A program made the position numbers and the translations under genes. Below, piece by piece: positions 1,330 to 37,949 of a stretch of 55,603 nt of DNA. The first letter of the stretch is position 1; the number at the start of each line of letters is the position of its first letter. The DNA is from a virus (taxonomy: Duplodnaviria; Caudoviricetes), in the IMG/VR virus record IMGVR_UViG_3300031772_000046, positions 1-55,603 of that record. One strand, written 5' to 3'. Below the pieces are notes generated by a model. It made no database searches. It saw only the letters and a program-made list of their open reading frames with translations, and was not told the origin of the DNA.

Positions 1330-3366
1330 TTACGCGAGGGTCGCGGGGCCGACACGGCGGCCCATGTCAAGCGCCTCCGGCGGAACCGGAGGCTCGACGC
1401 CGAATTGCCGCACTTGTTCCAGTTGCGCTGGCAGTTGCGGCCCTACGGCGGGAACGGGCATCTGTTGGGCTTGTCCCACGCCGGGCTGTCCCGGCATCTG
1501 GGGCTCTACGGGAGGAGTCATGCCCGCCCCTTGCAACAGGGCGGGGATGCCTTGAAGCAATTCGGGGTTCTGTTCGAGCAGGATTCTCAGCTTGTCCTCC
1601 GGTGTCAGATCCTCCTCTCGCGGCAGCGGCAGCCACACGGCTATCCTGCCGTCTGGGGACATCATGTTGAGTTCCTGGCGCTTCCTGAGTCGCTGCTTGA
1701 TCGCCTCCCTCTCTGGTAGCTCGGAGATGTCAAGCAGACCCTCAATGTCTATGCCCCCGATGGGGAACAACTCTTTGGCCTGCTGCATCTTGAACGCTCT
1801 GGTGATCTGGAAGGCATCGGACCCCTCCCACGTCCAGTCGAAGTAGGCGCGTTTGCGCTTGGCGTCGAGTTTCTCCCGATTCCACGTGGGTTTCCCGCCC
1901 TCTAGAATCGGTTGGCCCTCTGCGTCCACCTCCTTGACCATGCGATACTGGGGAAGCTCAACGTGGTTGGCACGCTCGTAGCAGAAGTCCTGTGGCACAC
2001 CGTTCTTGCCAAGGATCCGAAGCCACTTTTCCTCCGGCCAGAACTGCAGGCACAGGGAATAGACCTGCTCGGCCAAGCGGGCCATGGCCTGCTTCTTCAT
2101 CGCCACCATCGCGACTGCGCTCCTGGCGCCCGCCTCATTCAAAAGAGCCATGCCCGTAGCCGTCGGGACGCCGCCGGGCTTCTCGCCACGGCTGACATCA
2201 AACGTGCGTGTCTGCTTGTCCATCTCGAACTTCTTTGTTTCACGCTGCTGCGGTATGTGCGGGGGGAGTTGGGCGGCCTCCAGGCGCTTGATCTGGTTCA
2301 CGTCACGCACGGGCAGGACCAGACCGATTGCGTTGGTCAGCTTCTTGATATTGAGGATGTTCTTCCATTGGCAAATCGTCTGGGGATGTCCGACCGCCTT
2401 CACATTCGTTTCGATCTCGCGGTCGTAGAAGTCGATGCTGTCCTGGATCTTCTCGCACGCCTCCATCGGCGTCCGGCCCCAGAACCGCGCCTCATCCTTG
2501 ATGCAGGGAACGGGGACGACGGGGAGCTGGCGGTGGTTGTAGAACGTCTTCTTGGTCTTCTCCTCGTCCCTGCTGTGGTGAAGCACGACGAGGTTGGAAC
2601 CGGCCAGGTGCGCGACGTGAACGCCGCCATCGGCCAGATACCAGTACTCGTACACCATCGCGTGGGTGTGCGAGGCGGCAAGGTTGGAGATTGCCGCCGC
2701 ATCATCCTCTTCGGCTTGAACAATCGGATGGTCGCGGTCAAGCGTCGTGCCCGTATCGCCGTAGAGTTCCACATCGCCGAAAGATGATTCGGATTCAACG
2801 TACTGCCAGTTCTCGGGCCACCGCTTCTTGATGTAGGAGAGGGGCCGCTTGTTTGCGTAGAGGAAGAACTGGCAATCGTCGATGTCAAGGGCGTTGGGAT
2901 CCTGGAAGCAGTTGACCGGGCTAACCACGTCAACTTTTATGTCTTCGGTGCTGGGGTCGTAGTACGGCTTCAGTATCGCATCCCCGAGCTTGGCGCGCAG
3001 GCGCTCCAGCCGCTCTTCCTTCTCGGGCCACCTGCTCTTCTGTAGCACGAACAGGAACATGGCCGATGCTTGGTCCGCAAGTTCATCGTCGCCGGGTTCC
3101 GTCGCCGCCGCAGAGGCGTTGTAGCTTCTGGATACGCTGTTGGCTATGATCTCTTCGGTTTTGGCCTGGAAGAAGTTCGTCTGCGGGTTGGGCATCCAAT
3201 CTTCCGCAGGCGCTTTCAATTGTTCGCCGTAGTAGTATGAATCGAGCTTGATCATGCGGTCGTTGTCGTTACTCTTCTGCGCCTTCGCGGCGGAGTAGTC
3301 CAACTGGAACCGCCGCTGGATCTCCAGATGCTCGTCAGGCGGCGAATAAAAGGTTACATCGCCCAC
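1330..3366 (-). CDS. Portal protein (P22-like)
   Basis: 678 aa after terL; VVSPVNCFQDP motif, FWGRTPM, TATG motif, Q/P-rich C-terminus. Confidence 0.9.
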   Translation of the reverse strand: MGDVTFYSPPDEHLEIQRRFQLDYSAAKAQKSNDNDRMIKLDSYYYGEQLKAPAEDWMPNPQTNFFQAKTEEIIANSVSRSYNASAAATEPGDDELADQASAMFLFVLQKSRWPEKEERLERLRAKLGDAILKPYYDPSTEDIKVDVVSPVNCFQDPNALDIDDCQFFLYANKRPLSYIKKRWPENWQYVESESSFGDVELYGDTGTTLDRDHPIVQAEEDDAAAISNLAASHTHAMVYEYWYLADGGVHVAHLAGSNLVVLHHSRDEEKTKKTFYNHRQLPVVPVPCIKDEARFWGRTPMEACEKIQDSIDFYDREIETNVKAVGHPQTICQWKNILNIKKLTNAIGLVLPVRDVNQIKRLEAAQLPPHIPQQRETKKFEMDKQTRTFDVSRGEKPGGVPTATGMALLNEAGARSAVAMVAMKKQAMARLAEQVYSLCLQFWPEEKWLRILGKNGVPQDFCYERANHVELPQYRMVKEVDAEGQPILEGGKPTWNREKLDAKRKRAYFDWTWEGSDAFQITRAFKMQQAKELFPIGGIDIEGLLDISELPEREAIKQRLRKRQELNMMSPDGRIAVWLPLPREEDLTPEDKLRILLEQNPELLQGIPALLQGAGMTPPVEPQMPGQPGVGQAQQMPVPAVGPQLPAQLEQVRQFGVEPPVPPEALDMGRRVGPATLA

Positions 3367-5216
3367 AGTTGCTCGTCCTCCTCCTCTTCCTCAACGGAGG
3401 GATGCTTCCACCCTTTGTCGGTGTCTTTGACCTGCTTGGCTCTGCCGGGAACAAAGGGTTCGACCTTTGGCGCCGGCGACATCTCCGTCAGTTGGACAGC
3501 AATACCCATGGCTATGATCGTGTCGTCGCACTTACCCTTGACCGCACGCGGCTTGCCCTTGGCATCGCGGATGAACGTCAGGCATTCATCTATGAAGCGG
3601 CGGGAATGTGTCTTCAGTTCCTCCGTCCTCAAGACACGTCCCAGGCCGTCCACAAGGATCGGGCGCGTCTTCTTGTCCGTCGCCCACCCAAGTTCCTCGC
3701 GCATCTCGTCTGTCTCTTTATCAACGTAGGTGCGTTTGTACTGGGGCGTGTTCTTCTCGCGCAGATAGCGGATCACGGTTAGGCCGTGCTGCATGGCCTC
3801 GACGCCGACAAGGGCGTGGTTGTAGTACGCGCTGAGCTTTTCGAGTTCATGGCCGTACTCATCGGGATCCATGTGCCCATGCCATTCGGCGCAATGATTC
3901 AGGTTCGAGTCCAGAACCTGGGCGCAGGAGTAGTCGCCGTGCTCCAGCCCTTCGGCCACGTCCCCGCCGATGAAGTACTCCTCTTGGGGGTCGGGATTGT
4001 GCCATATCTCCAAGTAGCCGCCCGACATCGGCACGAACTTGACTTGTTTATCCGCCAGTTCGAGGTTGCCGACCGCGCCCTCCTTGCAGGCCAACTGCCG
4101 CTTCTGAAGCATCTTCTTGTCCCACACCGGACGGCCCGAATGCAGGAACGCTTCCTCTTCGGTTGAGGGATACTGCCAGGCGAAGATGTCCGAGTCGCCG
4201 TTGCACTGGATCGATGCGATGATCATCCTGCGCCAGTTCAGCTGCTCGGGCGTCAGGTTGTACTTCTTCATCATCGCCAGTTCGTATGAGTCCGACGGCT
4301 TGCCGCTTTCGGGGCTGAACTCGGGCTTGCTTATACCGGCCAGGAACGCCTTCTTCGCGTCAGGGCTATCAAAGGGCTGCGTGTAGTCGGGGAAGTCGAA
4401 CCACGGGAAGAAGAACGCCTTAAACCCGTTCTCCCCGCGCTTGGCCGCCCAATAGGTGTCGTAGAAGTAGTCGCCGATGTTGCCGCCGGTTGACTCCAGG
4501 ATGACCATCGTACCCGCCATCTCGGGAACGGCGGGCATCATTGCGGCCATCAGCCGCTTGCCGTCTTTCCATTCTGCCACCTCAGAGCCGTGGAAGTTAT
4601 GGATGGTGTAACTGCGACCTGCTCTGAGGTTGGCGGCGGTGTCAATAAGGATCTTGCTGTTCAGCGAAGGACGCGGATCCTTCGACGACGGGTTACGGAA
4701 CAGCAGTTCCTTCTTGTTCGAGGAGGCGGTCGCCGGTTGAAGATGGGCGGGCAGGTTATCATGGATGAGCCGCGACATGTCGAAGATGGTCTTTGACGCA
4801 TCGTCGTCGTGGGCGATGATCATGCTGTTGACGTTTGGATGGGTGGCGGTGTCGGTGTAGATCAACGCTTCTGTGATCGTACTCATACCCGTCTGGCGCG
4901 GCTTCAGGATGATGATCCTGACGGGCTTGCCTATGGTCCGCTGATGCACGATCTCCCGATAAAGCCTCTCCTGGACGACGTTGGGCTTGAGCAGTATCAA
5001 GCCCTTCTCCTTCGTCGTGATGTAGACGAAGTTCTCTATGAACCAGAGATCATCTTCGGCCGCGTGCAGACACTCATACTCAAGGCGGAGGGCGCGGAGT
5101 CTCTGGTCGGCCTCGCGCTCTTCGTCGGGAGTGAACATCCCCAGGTTCTTGCGCCGTTCGTATTCGGGGATGAGAAGGCCAAGTTCGCGTTCGATGTCCT
5201 TTGCGGTCAGCATCAT
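3354..5216 (-). CDS. terL: Terminase large subunit
   Basis: Walker A KPRQTGMST, HGSEVA Walker B, EST coupling motif, RNase H-like GGDVAEG...DYS...DDTIIA. Confidence 0.97.
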   Translation of the reverse strand: MMLTAKDIERELGLLIPEYERRKNLGMFTPDEEREADQRLRALRLEYECLHAAEDDLWFIENFVYITTKEKGLILLKPNVVQERLYREIVHQRTIGKPVRIIILKPRQTGMSTITEALIYTDTATHPNVNSMIIAHDDDASKTIFDMSRLIHDNLPAHLQPATASSNKKELLFRNPSSKDPRPSLNSKILIDTAANLRAGRSYTIHNFHGSEVAEWKDGKRLMAAMMPAVPEMAGTMVILESTGGNIGDYFYDTYWAAKRGENGFKAFFFPWFDFPDYTQPFDSPDAKKAFLAGISKPEFSPESGKPSDSYELAMMKKYNLTPEQLNWRRMIIASIQCNGDSDIFAWQYPSTEEEAFLHSGRPVWDKKMLQKRQLACKEGAVGNLELADKQVKFVPMSGGYLEIWHNPDPQEEYFIGGDVAEGLEHGDYSCAQVLDSNLNHCAEWHGHMDPDEYGHELEKLSAYYNHALVGVEAMQHGLTVIRYLREKNTPQYKRTYVDKETDEMREELGWATDKKTRPILVDGLGRVLRTEELKTHSRRFIDECLTFIRDAKGKPRAVKGKCDDTIIAMGIAVQLTEMSPAPKVEPFVPGRAKQVKDTDKGWKHPSVEEEEEDEQLWAM

Positions 5217-17343: not shown

Positions 17344-17898
17344 CTACCCCCTCCTGACCTTGTAAACCGCCATTTCGTCCTGCTTGCCGAAGACATTGAC
17401 CTCGCCGCCCAGGTCCACCATCTCCACCAATTCCCACTCGCAGATTTTCAGCAAATGCTGCATCTGCCTCTGCGTCGGAACGATGATGTGATGGCGGTAC
17501 TCCTGCCACCATTGGCCGGGGATGAAGATCAAGCCTTTTCCGCCTGCCTTGACCACCCTTCGCGCCTCGCACAGCGCGTCGTACATCGACGGGCAATGCT
17601 CCAGCGAATCCCACATGACCATGGCATCGAACTGAATGTCAGGGAAGGACAGATTCTGCATGTCGGAGAGAACGAGGTCAATGCCCAGCTTTGCACCTGC
17701 CTCAACCTCACAGGGATTGTACGTGACGCCGACGGCCTCTTTCCCTGAGTCCCGAAGACGCTTTACGAGGTGGCCGACACCGCAACCGAGATCAACGATT
17801 CTCTGGCAGTCCATGAGCCACGGTAGGTGTTCGTCAAGGTAGGCGACTTCGGGGCGGTCTGAGAATTCGTCTTGCCGCCAAGACCAGTAGGCGTTCAT
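17344..17898 (-). CDS. Class I SAM-dependent methyltransferase
   Basis: IVDLGCGVG, FDAMVMWDSLEH, RVVKAGG. Confidence 0.92.
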   Translation of the reverse strand: MNAYWSWRQDEFSDRPEVAYLDEHLPWLMDCQRIVDLGCGVGHLVKRLRDSGKEAVGVTYNPCEVEAGAKLGIDLVLSDMQNLSFPDIQFDAMVMWDSLEHCPSMYDALCEARRVVKAGGKGLIFIPGQWWQEYRHHIIVPTQRQMQHLLKICEWELVEMVDLGGEVNVFGKQDEMAVYKVRRG

Positions 17899-18695
17899 GC
17901 CGCGCTCTCGGGGGGAATCATCAGCAGATTCGCGCACGATCCCGCCGCAAGTACGGCGTCAAGGTCAATCGGGGTCGGTTCGCCGTCGTCGCTCAGGCCG
18001 TGGAAGGTGGCGCCTCTGTGGCCGAGAACCGTCAGTACGCTGCAGAATTTGCGGTAGTCGTCCTGCGCCATCATGCGATTCACTTCCATGACCACGGCGT
18101 GGATCTTGTCGCGGCACAGGAGGTCGCCAAGACCAAGAAGGGCGTGATACTCGCCGCCCTCGATGTCCAGCTTCAGGAGATCCACCGGCAGGTCGTCGGC
18201 CAGCATCGTGTCGAGGCGGGCGGCGTCAATCTCGGACCCGAAGCTTATGCCGTCGTAGTGCTGCTTGTACTCCTCGCTGTGCCGGTGGATACTGGAGTTG
18301 CCGGGGTAACGACCTGCCGTGTAGAAAGACACGTCCCCATTCTCGGAATACGCCGCCTTCGCCTCCACCCGGCACCACGCGCGCATGTAGTTGAGACTCA
18401 AATTGTCCGCAAGGTACACCGCAAGAGCCGGGTCCGCCTCAATGGCAATGACCTTGCCCGTCTCACCCACCAGATAGCCCGCCAGGACCGAGAAGTAGCC
18501 GACGTGGGCACCAACATCCACCACACGTTGACCCGGAAGAAGCGTGCGCATGAAGTAGCGCGTCAACGGCGGTTCAATGATGCCGTCAAGCGCGAACTGG
18601 GGAGTGATGCTCAAGTCGTCAGCCGGGATGATCATGCGACCACCCCAGACGGGTTTCACAAGAAGTCTGCCGTCGCCGATGTAGAGAGCGTTCAT
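17895..18695 (-). CDS. FkbM-family methyltransferase
   Basis: VVDVGAHVGYF, AIEA, LLKLDIEGGE. Confidence 0.93.
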   Translation of the reverse strand: MNALYIGDGRLLVKPVWGGRMIIPADDLSITPQFALDGIIEPPLTRYFMRTLLPGQRVVDVGAHVGYFSVLAGYLVGETGKVIAIEADPALAVYLADNLSLNYMRAWCRVEAKAAYSENGDVSFYTAGRYPGNSSIHRHSEEYKQHYDGISFGSEIDAARLDTMLADDLPVDLLKLDIEGGEYHALLGLGDLLCRDKIHAVVMEVNRMMAQDDYRKFCSVLTVLGHRGATFHGLSDDGEPTPIDLDAVLAAGSCANLLMIPPESAA

Positions 18696-18840
18696 AGAAG
18701 ACTCACCGCCGTCTGCCACATGCAGGCCGCTCCTATTCCGCCGCACAGGATGCGATACCAGGGCGTCCACTTCCGATTGAAGGCGCGCTCCAGACACAAG
18801 ATCCCAAGAACCGCCAGCACTGCAATCACGAGAAGCGCCA

Positions 18841-19437
18841 TTACGATACCCCCTCGTTCCAGCTTCGGGCCACCGCTACCGCGAACTCGTTGTCCAAGAG
18901 TCTACGTTTTTCGGCCTCCCAGGCCACCCCGAGCCGCGCATGTTCCACTAGTGCTCTTTGATGGGCCGCCTTAGACCGTAGGCCCCGCCTTGGCGGCGCG
19001 AACGAGAAGCCCGTCGTGTCACCGTAGGCAAGAACGGGGCAGGCGTATGTGTGTGCCAGCCAGATCCCCGCCGTCTCCAGAAGGACATCGCCATCCGGCG
19101 CCTCTCGACGCGCTTCCAACAGGCGCGGTCGCAGCTCACACACCTCGCCGAATTTGCAGTTCGACCACCCAAAGCAGCCCGGCAACGCACATGGGAGGCG
19201 CTGGTCAAGGGCCGTGGACCGCGCCGGTATCTTCTCATCGACGAACTCCCCGACGGGACACACGAATATGGGGCGGCACCGTATTTTGGGCACCGTCGCG
19301 CCCACGTCGGCAAACCAACGTTCCGCCGCCAGGGTCGCTTGATGTGCGGCCAACGCTTCCCTCACCTGTAGCGGGTACTTGCAGCCGTGGACCTTCTTGC
19401 ACCAGAAGCAGCCGAAAAGCGGATCGGGTCGGTTCAT
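18841..19437 (-). CDS. Cys-rich hypothetical protein downstream of tRNAs
   Basis: GAGGGG RBS; several Cys clusters. Confidence 0.7.
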   Translation of the reverse strand: MNRPDPLFGCFWCKKVHGCKYPLQVREALAAHQATLAAERWFADVGATVPKIRCRPIFVCPVGEFVDEKIPARSTALDQRLPCALPGCFGWSNCKFGEVCELRPRLLEARREAPDGDVLLETAGIWLAHTYACPVLAYGDTTGFSFAPPRRGLRSKAAHQRALVEHARLGVAWEAEKRRLLDNEFAVAVARSWNEGVS

Positions 19438-19456
19438 GGCAATTCCCCCTCAAACA

Positions 19457-19530
19457 TGGTGGAGCGGCGCGGACTTGAACCGCGATCTCCTGGGTGCAGA
19501 CCAGGAATTCTCCCGTTGAACTACCGTCCC
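19457..19530 (-). tRNA. tRNA-Ala(UGC) with C33
   Basis: G3:U70, A73, CCA, loop TCTGCAC on a perfect CCTGG/CCAGG stem. Confidence 0.9.
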
Positions 19531-19535
19531 AAAGA

Positions 19536-19610
19536 TGGTGGGCGCGGGAGGAATCGAACCTCTATCGCGCGGCTTAAAGGGCCGCCGCTCTACCGTTGAG
19601 CTACGCGTCC
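19536..19610 (-). tRNA. tRNA-Lys(UUU) with C33
   Basis: Cloverleaf; loop CCTTTAA on a perfect GCGGC/GCCGC stem; A73; CCA. Confidence 0.92.
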
Positions 19611-21193
19611 GCTTCCTGCGACCCAAACAACGGCAACTCGGCACCCATGCGTTGCCTGATGATGTCGCAGTAGTGCGCATCCTTCTCGATGCCTACGGCG
19701 TTGAAACCCTCGCGCACAGCGGCAAGAAGGGTTGTCCCCGAACCGGCGAAGGGATCAAGGATGGTGCCGTTGGGCGGGCAGACAAGGCGACAGAGCCAGC
19801 GCATCAGGGCCAGGGGCTTGACTGTTGGGTGGTCGTTACCCTCGCCACGCTCAGACTGCGATGCCTTGGCGCAGTATCTAAATCGCTCTACGCAGTCCCG
19901 CCCCCCAAGAACCGCGTTCATCAGCATGGAGTCGGATATGACACTTTCTGCAAAGCCATCGATACTCGAAAGGGTGTGAATAGTCCCCATGGTGCTTATC
20001 AGCCTGTGGACTACCACATATCTCACAGGGGTGTCGTTCAACATTTCCGTGATTATGCGCCGCAACTCGGCAACACACTCTCGCCCTGTATTCCGCATCT
20101 GCGTGATACCGTTCCCGTCTCTCTGCTCGTATGCGTTCCCCATGGCGCTCATAAAACGTGCCAGCGGTGCGTTTGCGGCTTGCCCCTCTGGCAATTGCGC
20201 GACTACTACAAGATCTAGAACAGAATCGGCGAATCCCCTTGACTGCGTTGAATCCATTGCCACAGAATTCGCAGTATTTGACCAACTCTCGTCTCCCCCC
20301 TTCGTAATCTTGAAGAAACGAGAAGCGCCGCCCTTGCTGGGTCCGAAGTGTGCGCCGTCTGGTTTACCTCGAAACTGCCCGTAGATGCCGTGTCGCCCGG
20401 CTATGGCGGGCGCCGTCGGGCTTCTTGTCACGGCACCGCTGTTCAGGACACCGCTCTGCTTATCCAACATCGCAGCCGCCTCTTCGTCCAAGACGACGTT
20501 CGCGGGCCAGCGGCCATCGGTTGGGCGCGGGTGTTCACGGTTATCAAGTTGGCCCCCGTATCCGCATGAGGGATCGCCCTTCCAGCCACCCTTGCCGAAC
20601 AATCGGCACTCCTCGATGTTCATCGCCCCACATCCCCACTTGGCGATGTTCTGCGCATACGTGCCGTCAAGGGGCTTCTGCGCCAGGATAATGTCCTCAT
20701 GGGCGGGTTTCAGGGCCGTGCCCCACCCGTGCCAGTCGGGCATCTCTGCGGCAATGTTGTGGTTCTTGGGGAAGCCTGTCCCGTACAGCCAGCACAGTTT
20801 GTCCCTGACGATGAACCCCGCATCCTCAATCCCACAGGTAAGGCGATGAACCGTGCGCGTCCCGCCGAAGGCAAGGAGGTAGGCGCCGGGCTTCATCACG
20901 CGCAGAAGTTCGCGTGACCATGAGGTACACCACACTTGGTACGGATGTCCCGCCTCGTATGCGTTGACCGCATGGCGGACGTAGGCTCCCTTGCTGGCAT
21001 CGCGCAAATCAGCTTCACGTCGCGTGCGTGCTTCCGCGTGGGTATTGGCGGACTTAAAGCTGTCCCATTCCTGGCCCATGAACTCCAAGCCGTAGGGGGG
21101 ATCGGTGACAACGGCTTCGATGCTGTTGGCTGGCATGGCGCGCATTAGGTCCAGGCAGTCGCCTTGGTGCAGGGTCCATGGCATAGAAGTCAC
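19601..21193 (-). CDS. N6A/N4C DNA methyltransferase (beta class) with 145-codon in-frame insertion
   Basis: TDPPY, HPTVKP, LDPFAGSGTT; usual SRFF|YCAKAS segment is split by the insert. Confidence 0.93.
   Translation of the reverse strand: MTSMPWTLHQGDCLDLMRAMPANSIEAVVTDPPYGLEFMGQEWDSFKSANTHAEARTRREADLRDASKGAYVRHAVNAYEAGHPYQVWCTSWSRELLRVMKPGAYLLAFGGTRTVHRLTCGIEDAGFIVRDKLCWLYGTGFPKNHNIAAEMPDWHGWGTALKPAHEDIILAQKPLDGTYAQNIAKWGCGAMNIEECRLFGKGGWKGDPSCGYGGQLDNREHPRPTDGRWPANVVLDEEAAAMLDKQSGVLNSGAVTRSPTAPAIAGRHGIYGQFRGKPDGAHFGPSKGGASRFFKITKGGDESWSNTANSVAMDSTQSRGFADSVLDLVVVAQLPEGQAANAPLARFMSAMGNAYEQRDGNGITQMRNTGRECVAELRRIITEMLNDTPVRYVVVHRLISTMGTIHTLSSIDGFAESVISDSMLMNAVLGGRDCVERFRYCAKASQSERGEGNDHPTVKPLALMRWLCRLVCPPNGTILDPFAGSGTTLLAAVREGFNAVGIEKDAHYCDIIRQRMGAELPLFGSQEADA
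19878..20285 (-). CDS. HNH-type zinc-finger endonuclease nested in an alternate frame of the MTase
   Basis: CEFC..FCSRSC; CEIC..HHGDYSHP..WLCRKCH; own GGGGGAG RBS plus TTG start. Confidence 0.85.
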   Translation of the reverse strand: MVKYCEFCGNGFNAVKGIRRFCSRSCSSRAIARGASRKRTAGTFYERHGERIRAERRERYHADAEYRARVCCRVAAHNHGNVERHPCEICGSPQADKHHGDYSHPFEYRWLCRKCHIRLHADERGSWGAGLRRAI

Positions 21194-21205
21194 TCCCCAG
21201 ACGCG

Positions 21206-21469
21206 CTACTGTAGTGGACGGGGTTCATGCGCAGCCACCTCCTCATCCAACTCCTCGCGCGTGCGTCCCGTCCTCCGCAGTGTCGCCGCGATCACGTTAT
21301 CCACCCACGCCGCGTGACCGTCGGGGCCGCAGCAGGAGAGTGCTGTCACCAGCACGTCCCATGGTTCGGCGAGAGAGCCCAGGCACTCACGGCAGTAGGC
21401 GCAGGACATGGCTCCGAGGACGGAGGAGGCCACTACTGCATCCGGTGCGCCGCAGACCTCGCAGGTCAT
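21206..21469 (-). CDS. Zinc-finger hypothetical protein
   Basis: CEVC...CREC. Confidence 0.7.
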   Translation of the reverse strand: MTCEVCGAPDAVVASSVLGAMSCAYCRECLGSLAEPWDVLVTALSCCGPDGHAAWVDNVIAATLRRTGRTREELDEEVAAHEPRPLQ

Positions 21470-36136: not shown

Positions 36137-36546
36137 GCGGAAGCCTCCTCAAGCAGCGACTGATACTCCTTCATGGCCGCAATCCCCACCAGAACACGGG
36201 GCACCGCGTCGTATCGCTTGTGAACGTCCAGGCTCACGATGCAGGAGTCGTCGCGGTAGATCACGCCGAGAAGGGCGTCCTCGACCGCCTTGATGAGGTT
36301 AGAACAGTCGGGCCGTCCCGTTGGGTACTGCTTCTTCTTCGACTTCGGCGGGCTTGAGTAGAAGACCGCCACTACCGCCAGGGGTTCATCCAGGGGCACT
36401 TCAGGCCGATGCTTCAGGGCCTCTTCCCTGATGCACAGGCGCCATGCCGCCGTGTTGGGGGGTGTGTACGGCCTACCCCCGCGCGTTCCCGAGTGACGCG
36501 CCCGCGCCTCCGCTACCGCCGTGCCGTAGACGGTGAAGGAGATCAT
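36133..36546 (-). CDS. rusA: RusA-family Holliday junction resolvase
   Basis: RPDCSNLIKAVEDAL.GVIYRDD. Confidence 0.95.
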   Translation of the reverse strand: MISFTVYGTAVAEARARHSGTRGGRPYTPPNTAAWRLCIREEALKHRPEVPLDEPLAVVAVFYSSPPKSKKKQYPTGRPDCSNLIKAVEDALLGVIYRDDSCIVSLDVHKRYDAVPRVLVGIAAMKEYQSLLEEASA

Positions 36547-37949
36547 GTCATGTCGCCTCCAAGTTGCAGCTGCTGGGGTACATCGATGGCCCCGCGCTCG
36601 AACGACCACCTTGCTTGTGCGGCCTCCGCGTCTATGCGCTTACGCGCCTCATCGGCATAGGCGGGGTTCAGCTCAACGCCGATGTATGCCCGGCCATGGC
36701 GCACGGCGACAAGCCCTGTGGTGCCCACGCCCATGAAGGGATCGAGGACAACGCACTTGGCGGACCCGTCGTTTGAGGGGCAGGGGCAGGTGGGGCGCCA
36801 GCCGCTAGTATTATAGAGGCGGGTTGCGTTACACGATGCGCCGGCATCATTGCGATCTGGATTTGGCATCGCACGTCTCTGTTTGCGTTCTGATTGCATC
36901 TTCATTACCTGCCGCCTCCATGGCGCTCCGCAGCTTGGACAAGCCATGGGGCTTGTCCCCGCCAGGATGCAGGGTTCGACGAGGGCCGGGGGAAAGACAG
37001 CGAAGTGAGGGCCGGGATAGGGTTCTGTGGGCACCCTCCAGACGTTGCGCTTGTTGCGGCCCCGCAGGGGGTCGCCGTACTGCGCCCGCCCGTCATGTAG
37101 GCCCCCCGTTGTGCGATTGCCCTGCATGGTCAAGGCGCCTGTCTTGTGGGCCGCCGTGTCGGCCGCAAACACTCGCCCGGGCTCCGCCATCGGTTCCCGT
37201 ATCGCGTCGGCGTCATAGGCGTAACTCGAGCTCTTGGCGAGGTGGAACACGTGCTCGTGGGCGCACGTGGTCCTGTCAGTCACACTCTCGGGCATACAGT
37301 TAGACTTGCCCCAGATGTTGTCCTGGCGCAGATACCAGCCGTCCGCACGCAGGGCGAAGGCGAGGAGCCAGGGGATGCCCACTAGATCCTTGGGCTTGAG
37401 GTTTCCCGTTGCCCGCCTTGTAATCTGATACCCCGCCGCACCGCGATTCTTCCCGCCCTTAAGCGTCGAACACGAACTCGGATTCGACATCCCGCCTTGA
37501 GCGTAGGTATCAGCTATGATCACCCACAGCGTGCCGTCCTTGCGCAGCACCCTGCGCACTTCGCCGAAGACCGCCACCAGATGGCCGATGTACATCTCCG
37601 GTGTCGGCTCCGCCCCCAGCTCGCCCCTCCAGGCGCCGCACGCCTGACAGAACAGCCCGCCGGCGACCAATGAATGCCTAAGCGCCCTCTCGCCTATCTG
37701 CCCTTTGCGCCGGGCTTTGCCATCGACCAGCCCCCCATGATAACCAGGATCTAGCCGACCGCCATCATCGCCCCAGTTGGTGTGCGGGCACGCCGGAGCG
37801 CCGCCCCATACCTGCGGCTCAGTACCGTAGGCCCTCAGCCCAAAGTAGGGGGGCGAGGTGACGCAGCAATGTATGCTGTTGTCGGGCAGCGTTGCAAGCG
37901 CGTCCAGGACGTGGCCTGTGATGATGGTGTTGAGGGGCAGGGAAGTCAC
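36543..37949 (-). CDS. N4C/N6A DNA methyltransferase
   Basis: VTSPPY, HFAVFP, VLDPFMGVGTT. Confidence 0.95.
   Translation of the reverse strand: MTSLPLNTIITGHVLDALATLPDNSIHCCVTSPPYFGLRAYGTEPQVWGGAPACPHTNWGDDGGRLDPGYHGGLVDGKARRKGQIGERALRHSLVAGGLFCQACGAWRGELGAEPTPEMYIGHLVAVFGEVRRVLRKDGTLWVIIADTYAQGGMSNPSSCSTLKGGKNRGAAGYQITRRATGNLKPKDLVGIPWLLAFALRADGWYLRQDNIWGKSNCMPESVTDRTTCAHEHVFHLAKSSSYAYDADAIREPMAEPGRVFAADTAAHKTGALTMQGNRTTGGLHDGRAQYGDPLRGRNKRNVWRVPTEPYPGPHFAVFPPALVEPCILAGTSPMACPSCGAPWRRQVMKMQSERKQRRAMPNPDRNDAGASCNATRLYNTSGWRPTCPCPSNDGSAKCVVLDPFMGVGTTGLVAVRHGRAYIGVELNPAYADEARKRIDAEAAQARWSFERGAIDVPQQLQLGGDMT

Follow-up and report, generated by a model that had tools for sequence, protein, structure and literature searches.

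A stop-free insert hiding an out-of-frame HNH-type endonuclease gene within a phage gene for a DNA methylase, and its relatives in uncultured viruses

Nuclease genes hidden in another reading frame of a phage DNA methylase gene have been described before. The closest case is the 'ShiLan domain' in the DNA methylase gp65 of mycobacteriophage ShiLan, first described in PMC9957025 and treated by Arsenault, Gosselin and Gogarten (Genes 2025, PMC11855218). According to the available text of the latter paper, a stop-free insert of 202 amino acids (aa) contains a 195-aa HNH open reading frame (ORF) that uses the third frame, begins at a GTG 18 bp into the insert and ends at a TAA in its last four bases, intron and intein features are absent, and a loop is predicted for the in-frame peptide. 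The same text (section 3.6) describes a second case, an insertion in Pacc40 gp60 with a hidden 160-aa HNH-like ORF, and states that 'several' similar elements occur in other phages and prokaryotes; a genome announcement, as far as its text was available, mentions one more methylase with an out-of-frame HNH. Here we describe an element in the virus record IMGVR_UViG_3300031772_000046 (55,603 nucleotides (nt), referred to as the window in its whole length). Judged by sequence comparison, it is an environmental example of this known architecture with a different insertion site, an unrelated HNH lineage and a broad range of GC content among its relatives.

The element lies on the minus strand, in the following arrangement.

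19601..21193, minus strand: beta-class N6/N4 DNA methyltransferase (PF01555, phrog_67), an uninterrupted ORF that includes the 145-codon insert
20312..21193, minus strand: methylase part 5' of the insert, from the DPPY motif to GGASRFF, by homologue alignment
19877..20311, minus strand: insert of 435 nt, or 145 methylase-frame codons (KITKGG...VERFR), absent from close homologues, lower in GC, without a stop in the host frame
20293..20300, minus strand: Shine-Dalgarno (SD)-like run GGGGGGAG, 7 nt 5' of the nuclease TTG start
19878..20285, minus strand: 135-aa zinc-ribbon and HNH-type (His-Me finger) endonuclease ORF, with a TTG start and a TAG at 19878-19880
20208..20273, minus strand: N-terminal zinc ribbon CxxC...FCSxxC of this ORF (residues 5-26), with invariant C5, C8, C22 and C26 and weak zf-FCS matches
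19926..20030, minus strand: nuclease core PCExCG...D[KR]HHxDY..P....W.CR.CH...H (residues 86-120), a conserved motif
19601..19876, minus strand: methylase part 3' of the insert with YCAKAS, HPTVKP and DPFAGSGTT, motifs that are intact here and in invaded relatives

The methylase ORF comprises 530 aa when read from a GTG, or 527 aa from an ATG three codons inward at 21184. It matched PF01555 with an expectation value (E) of 1.1e-31 (111 bits, against a curated cut-off of 26.7) and phrog_67 with an E of 9.1e-78, and it contains the N-terminal DPPY motif and, as DPFAGSGTT, the C-terminal FxGxG S-adenosylmethionine motif. The boundaries of the insert were obtained from an alignment with seven close methylase homologues that had been chosen for their shortness (380-399 aa; 50-54% identical). 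Four of the seven read GGASRFF/Y.AKA, where the slash marks the insertion point, and three read GGASRFFPxFRY.AKA; relative to this longer form the insert is 142 rather than 145 codons in size. The methylases P0106, P0119 and P0130 likewise lack the insert.

Within the insert, the methylase and HNH frames contain no stop codon, and the third frame contains 13. The GC content of the insert is about 0.50-0.56, compared with about 0.62 in the flanks. The nuclease codons begin one base upstream of the methylase codons on the same strand, placing the host frame at +1, and the nuclease ORF occupies 408 of the 435 nt; 27 nt of the insert precede it and a single nt follows its TAG, which falls within the last 4 nt of the insert. 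In relatives, AAGGAGG-like purine runs are found at the position matching the SD-like run of the window, followed by TTG or ATG starts. In the host frame the insert begins with K and ends with R, followed by Y, and both ends vary among relatives.

This anatomy had been outlined in a first-pass annotation made from the letters of the window, which reported a 435-nt insert between GGASRFF and YCAKAS that is stop-free in the host frame, and a same-strand 135-aa zinc-finger/HNH ORF with its own ribosome-binding site (RBS) and a TAG at the insert boundary. Every point of this description holds, and the alignment with insert-free homologues that it had suggested is provided by the seven proteins mentioned above. 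The annotation had also reported an RF dipeptide repeated at both ends; this is present in the window, and among relatives it is common and not universal, with C-junctions that also read KSFIY, RAFY, RLFY and HSLIY.

The element resembles the ShiLan domain in several respects. The same methylase family is invaded, as seen in an alignment that includes ShiLan gp65; the insert is stop-free and carries a same-strand HNH ORF, with the host frame at +1, that starts a few codons in and stops in the last four bases; intron and intein features are lacking; and structure prediction renders the in-frame peptide as a helical excursion of low confidence. In contrast, the insertion site of ShiLan, ALKP/A.EPI, is about 130 residues upstream of the SRFF/YCAKAS site used here, and the sizes differ (202 aa with a 195-aa HNH there, 145 aa with a 135-aa HNH here). 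The two nucleases exhibited no significant similarity in tblastn (best E 0.015-0.05, at other places or in other frames), and the ShiLan-type HNH matches Pfam HNH_3 in a relative, L007, whereas the clade of the window matches no Pfam HNH model. For ShiLan, no RBS could be detected according to the available text of PMC11855218, in which leaderless initiation at the GTG is proposed; here, an SD-like run and TTG or ATG starts are found. The published cases in that text are all from GC-rich actinophages, whereas the segments of the window's family span a GC of 34-62%.

Pacc40 gp60 shares with the window an out-of-frame nuclease ORF in a stop-free phage methylase insert with the host frame at +1, but the methylase there is a different, helicase-fused one that is invaded at a different site, and its ORF has no similarity to that of the window (best E 0.73). 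Inteins that hide a nuclease likewise contain a third-frame nuclease in a region read through by the host frame, and L007 has such an intein; their peptide leaves by protein splicing, whereas no splicing domain flanks the insert of the window. Free-standing phage endonucleases near ssb or replication genes (Escherichia phage phiEB49 gp25 and the 'endonuclease' of Vibrio phage 1220 g2) have a homologous core with 33-43% tblastn identity, but these genes are intergenic and un-nested and contain 5-8 stops in the +1 frame. As with homing endonucleases borne by group I introns or inteins, and with genes split by free-standing ones, a seemingly selfish nuclease gene occupies a conserved site of a conserved gene in a patchy manner; unlike in those systems, the host would be spared by stop-free read-through and not by RNA splicing, protein splicing or the production of two polypeptides. 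No description of the SRFF/Y.AKA site or of this nuclease clade was found in full-text searches of the literature, although the supplements or the repository of PMC11855218 may list it.

The second ORF is a real gene and, by its sequence matches, a nuclease homologue. Its translation matched phrog_2340 ('endonuclease', 3.1e-8) and phrog_1271 ('HNH endonuclease', 3.4e-7), and a PHROG search with the methylase-frame translation of the insert gave no match. A tblastn search with the nuclease found 312 phage records at an E of 0.01 or better (best E 3e-8), which are free-standing genes labelled by their depositors as endonuclease, endonuclease VII or PacI-like HNH. In addition, a profile of 20 family members aligned with six free-standing phage endonucleases over the core (hhalign probability 99.1%, E 8.7e-19). 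Among the 20 members, there is no variation at C87, C90, H98, H99, C112, H116 and H120, and conservation at C115 is at least 90%; no Asn is invariant, which we take to fit an HNH variant. We use the label 'HNH-type' because of the PHROG profiles, the annotations that others have given to the homologues, and the motif; Pfam, NCBIfam and structure comparisons gave no such match. The Pfam/NCBIfam scan of the 20 members returned only weak matches to TNB/TnpB, NinG (in 5 of them), DUF7685 and zf-FCS, and the matches from sequence profile searches of the PDB were limited to an FCS zinc finger (E 0.018) and one chain of CasD (E 0.09). A frameshift fusion of the N-terminal part of the methylase to the nuclease was also considered and is ruled out by AT-rich relatives, in which a stop in the HNH frame lies 0-5 codons before the start codon.

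A search with the methylase frame of the insert retrieved three further proteins, which are 37-41% identical across the whole insert, as well as four IMG/VR loci (whole-locus GC 0.35-0.61) in which no stop interrupts the methylase frame, a well-conserved nuclease is encoded one base upstream of it, and stops are plentiful in the third frame. A profile of the methylase-frame insert, run against 1.84 billion representatives, matched 100 clusters at an E of 0.001 or better and 42 at 1e-10 or better. Since searches of this kind are biased to open frames, the search of IMG/VR was repeated via the nuclease frame, for which it makes no difference whether the host frame is open. This yielded 31 loci out of 74 pattern matches, which include the four contigs found before and of which several are identical. 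In all 31 loci the +1 frame is open across the whole match, in ORFs of 216-1024 aa, and in none of them is the +2 frame open across the match. Together with the window, the loci comprise 26 distinct DNA sequences with a segment GC of 0.34-0.62; none of the 26 has a stop in the host (+1) frame, and each has 1-24 stops in the +2 frame. The insertion site is the same in all relatives, G[SG]A[AS]RFF/.../Y[CTSAV][AGSP]K[AT].

The avoidance of host-frame stops was evaluated by a synonymous shuffle, in which the probability of an open frame ranged from 0.02 to 0.95 per sequence. For the 21 copies that share less than 80% nt identity, host-gene codon usage predicts 48.5 stops in sum, and none was observed; the summed log10 P is -29 when independence is assumed. 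Dipeptides that force a host-frame stop are absent from all 26 copies. Conversely, all six free-standing homologues used as a control (GC 0.37-0.47) contain 5-8 stops at +1, and forced-stop dipeptides occur in two of them. These results support the dual-coding reading that the first-pass annotation had proposed, in which a putative homing element would spare the host by keeping its frame open; the methylase-frame stops that it had expected to find often in homologous inserts, were the proposal wrong, do not occur in any of the 26 distinct inserts at a GC of 34-62%.

Among the AT-rich relatives, L009/L023 and L010/L019 (GC about 0.35) carry a 170-aa nuclease with a second N-terminal zinc ribbon in a 184-aa insert, and the host frame is still without a stop. 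A scan of viral contigs with the single HNH protein (0 of 20 pattern matches confirmed) and a scan of species-representative prokaryote genomes with the HNH alignment (0 of 54 confirmed) found no prophage, cellular or free-standing copy of the window's nuclease clade.

Purifying selection is seen on the nuclease frame. In a comparison of 25 sequences, the nucleotide diversity at nuclease codon positions 1, 2 and 3 was 0.327, 0.294 and 0.583, respectively, and the amino-acid identity was 0.60 for the HNH reading but 0.315 for the host reading, the former being higher in 299 of 300 pairs. The conserved patches of the methylase frame (PV.Y, NTM and LLSIDGFAE) lie exactly over PCExCG, DKHH and FEYRWLCRxCH of the nuclease, and there are no others. 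Thus, by sequence comparison, selection acts on the nuclease frame, and the host-frame peptide, a by-product, is maintained only in being free of stops. The first-pass annotation had called the HNH gene overprinted inside the methylase ORF; the relationship is the reverse, with the HNH frame being the conserved one.

The element is distributed among methylases in a patchy manner. In 191 of 200 pairs the HNH proteins are more alike than the N-terminal parts of the methylases (mean identities 0.587 and 0.433; rho 0.23), and the methylase of the window is 50-54% identical to insert-free homologues and at most 43% identical to invaded ones. Such a patchy, host-independent distribution is the pattern expected of an element that would spread by homing. 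The methylase itself looks intact in the invaded alleles: when 16 invaded methylases are aligned with 12 insert-free ones, D28, P29 and P30 of DPPY are at least 90% conserved and G481, S482 and G483 are invariant. In the model of the whole methylase, the predicted local distance difference test (pLDDT) score is about 87-97 in the core, and the insert (residues 292-436) is helical with a pLDDT of 30-70. These features suggest that the enzyme would work.

We consider it highly probable that the element is a site-specific HNH/His-Me homing-endonuclease gene residing in a phage methylase gene whose frame is read straight through. The element would have inserted into a conserved spot of the methylase that is flanked by G[SG]A[AS]RFF and Y.AKA and directly precedes the C-terminal lobe with HPT.KP and FxGxG, and would not be spliced out; because its length is a multiple of three and the host frame is stop-free, ribosomes would translate the methylase straight through it. 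The product would be a methylase with an extra, poorly conserved loop of 145 residues. The nuclease would be made separately by internal initiation, from its own SD sequence and TTG start one base out of frame, and would presumably cut insert-free methylase alleles of co-infecting phages, into which the element would then be copied during repair. That the host frame is kept open by selection suggests that ribosomes read through it, and argues against both bypassing and splicing.

Several results weigh against this reading. In the window alone the open host frame has no significance (P = 0.22 by synonymous shuffle given the HNH protein, and P = 0.27 with 1.14 stops expected by back-translation with host-gene codon usage) and becomes significant only together with the relatives, for which the joint probability is overstated by an unknown amount because the copies share ancestry. 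The Pfam and NCBIfam HNH models match none of the 20 family members, nor the free-standing relatives. The AlphaFold model of the nuclease, built from 5 sequences, is weak (mean pLDDT 64), with strands at 95-99 and 108-111 and a helix at 113-124. A Foldseek search of the PDB with this model found nothing at an E of 0.001 or better, with small zinc ribbons at an E of 0.45 or higher, and a wide VIA-align search gave no Z of 5 or more. In the relative L026/L027 (2501-2890) a stop interrupts the HNH frame within the N-terminal zinc ribbon, and the host frame is still open; this copy may be a decaying nuclease, as expected in a gene that is still needed. One sequencing run contains the window in full and may be where it came from, and the remaining runs contain 0.05-0.47 of the sampled words. 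The contigs from four of the runs are mostly short pieces of other methylases that match on conserved motifs, and none of them bridges the insert, which is barely covered. Finally, the reading presupposes that a methylase with a 145-residue loop before motif X would be active. Among the contigs, the match of one from RNA ends at 19876, beside the boundary of the insert, and in one from DNA 19831 is joined to 20484; the two are too short and too unlike the window to distinguish an insert-free relative from anything else.

The first alternative is that the invaded methylase is dead or dispensable and that the open frame is an inherited accident of an element that was stop-free when it first inserted. 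The chance-compatible probability of the window alone (0.22-0.27) and the shared ancestry of the copies are in its favour, and the available text of PMC11855218 argues that this phage methylase family is dispensable. However, the third positions of the HNH codons, which are the second positions of the host codons, differ at 58% of sites, and stops have thus had ample opportunity to arise; none is found in the 21 non-redundant copies where 48.5 are expected. The motifs on both sides of the insert are, moreover, conserved in invaded alleles. We consider this alternative unlikely, as it accords poorly with the family as a whole; for the window by itself, a dead host gene is possible.

Alternatively, the insert might be removed by a self-splicing RNA or by protein splicing of an unrecognised kind, leaving a mature methylase without it. 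Homing endonuclease genes usually ride in introns or inteins, a classical intein is present elsewhere in the same methylase family (L007, ShiLan gp65), and the short junction repeats (RFF ... RF.Y) recall exon mimicry. On the other hand, no Rfam intron family matched 19300-21400 at an E of up to 10, and the ORF leaves only 28 nt of the insert outside it, with no space for a ribozyme core. An intein is contradicted by the ends of the insert, K...R followed by Y, which provide no Cys, Ser or Thr nucleophile and no terminal Asn and which vary in relatives, and by a host-frame sequence that is only 31.5% conserved. The absence of intein and group I intron signatures noted in the first-pass annotation is thereby upheld. 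As splicing would also make a stop-free host frame in 26 of 26 distinct copies needless, we regard it as quite unlikely.

A domesticated arrangement, in which the nuclease, the loop or both serve the phage, for example with the nuclease as a partner of the methylase, in place of selfish homing, is an idea raised in the available text of PMC11855218. The nuclease is under purifying selection and is always found at this methylase site (31 of 31 loci), with no free-standing copy of its clade found. Nevertheless, the element is patchy among methylases, its HNH protein is more conserved than its hosts, its GC is below that of the flanks, one copy has a broken HNH frame and an open host frame, and the host-frame peptide is not conserved. 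These observations make domestication very unlikely.

Translational bypassing, which the first-pass annotation had offered as the other possibility, can practically be dismissed: in T4 gene 60 the bypass spans a 50-nt gap with a stop after the take-off codon and a matched landing codon, and although a hop from the Phe codon of SRFF to that of ERF would join a TTC and a TTT at the two junctions of the window, here the host frame contains no stop codon, either after the take-off site or elsewhere, 435 nt would have to be skipped, relatives do not conserve the RF of the 3' junction, and bypassing would not need an open frame.

Several related loci have further insertions in or near methylase genes. 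In L007:52-3624, an IMG/VR contig with a GC of 0.45, the methylase-frame ORF is open for at least 1191 aa and contains three inserts, in each of which a nuclease ORF lies concealed in a different frame. Insert 1 (434-1297) carries a 287-aa ORF (Pfam HNH_3, 2.7e-11) inside a classical intein (CLSEDTEILT...FITGN/SGFPK). Insert 2 (1958-2692), after GRWPANLVL, carries a 244-aa ORF with HNH_3 and NUMOD3, which is homologous to the HNH of ShiLan (30% identity, E 4e-16) although the two occupy different sites. Insert 3 (3051-3455) is a member of the window's family. In inserts 1 and 2 the host frame is at +2, with no stops there and 14 and 30 stops, respectively, at +1. One methylase gene thus holds three hidden nucleases in two different frame relations.

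In cluster P/F mycobacteriophages (L004:2000-2560 of phage Phineas; L001, L002, L005 and L042; protein P0103), the homologous methylase is annotated as two ORFs. The split lies about 15 codons downstream of the insertion site of the window, where the N-terminal fragment ends in ...AKAPGAERP followed by SVVTTKLRLRADLTPEQVDHVVARLREAGVEID and a stop; a small ORF ends in ...VAHPT and a stop, with HPT and VKPL lying seven bases (TAGAGCC) apart. An extra 262-aa ORF is present there in Malithi and Willsammy, and the JGI protein P0103, as well as P0119, ends with the same tail. A natural split so near the site suggests that this methylase stretch tolerates interruption. At the SRFF site itself, the in-frame insert of P0112 (NCBI source, 524 aa) is shorter, at about 50 aa, with a copy of PTFR on either side (SRFFPTFR...LPTFRYEPKA); this insert may be the remnant of another element. 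Among invaded methylases, P0002 and P0004 have a further in-frame insert of about 280 aa after DPPY, and P0003 and P0004 have 30-60 extra aa between ER..G and HPT.KP; these extra inserts might hide further ORFs.

The window itself, with a CheckV completeness of 60, contains portal, terminase, RecE/RecT-like, endolysin and methylase genes and three tRNA genes. The stop codon of the invaded methylase (19601-19603) lies inside a tRNA-Lys(ttt) gene at 19536-19610, with the last 10 nt of the methylase ORF overlapping the 5' end of the tRNA gene, and a tRNA-Ala(tgc) gene follows at 19457-19530. A second DNA methylase of another subfamily (36543-37949, minus strand, 468 aa, phrog_67 2.4e-61) lacks the SRFF/Y.AKA target, and a further methyltransferase is encoded at 17895-18797 on the minus strand (phrog_8156, 2.8e-17).

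In the available text of the published papers, hidden HNH genes all come from GC-rich mycobacteriophages, in which long open alternative frames are cheap, and the arguments are based on anatomy and predicted structures. The window's family adds, for the same methylase family, a third site of insertion and a nuclease lineage that is unrelated, and its 31 IMG/VR loci and 100 protein clusters indicate that the arrangement is widespread in uncultured viruses. With its AT-rich members, and with free-standing homologues as controls, it provides quantitative support for a host frame held open by selection; these comparative statistics turn read-through, and the toleration of a foreign peptide before motif X, into testable questions. 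Gene callers, meanwhile, report one long 'methylase' at such loci and miss the nuclease.

Taken further, a broader reading, which we offer only tentatively and consider doubtful when its parts are taken jointly, is that stop-free, out-of-frame nuclease genes would give homing elements a third general means of residing within genes, in addition to introns and inteins, and that such elements would often occur in uncultured phages, whatever their GC content. Under the same reading, the codon choice and even the amino-acid sequence of the nuclease would be shaped to hold the host frame open, and host-frame translation across the nuclease RBS would gate the amount of nuclease, coupling homing to the expression of the methylase.

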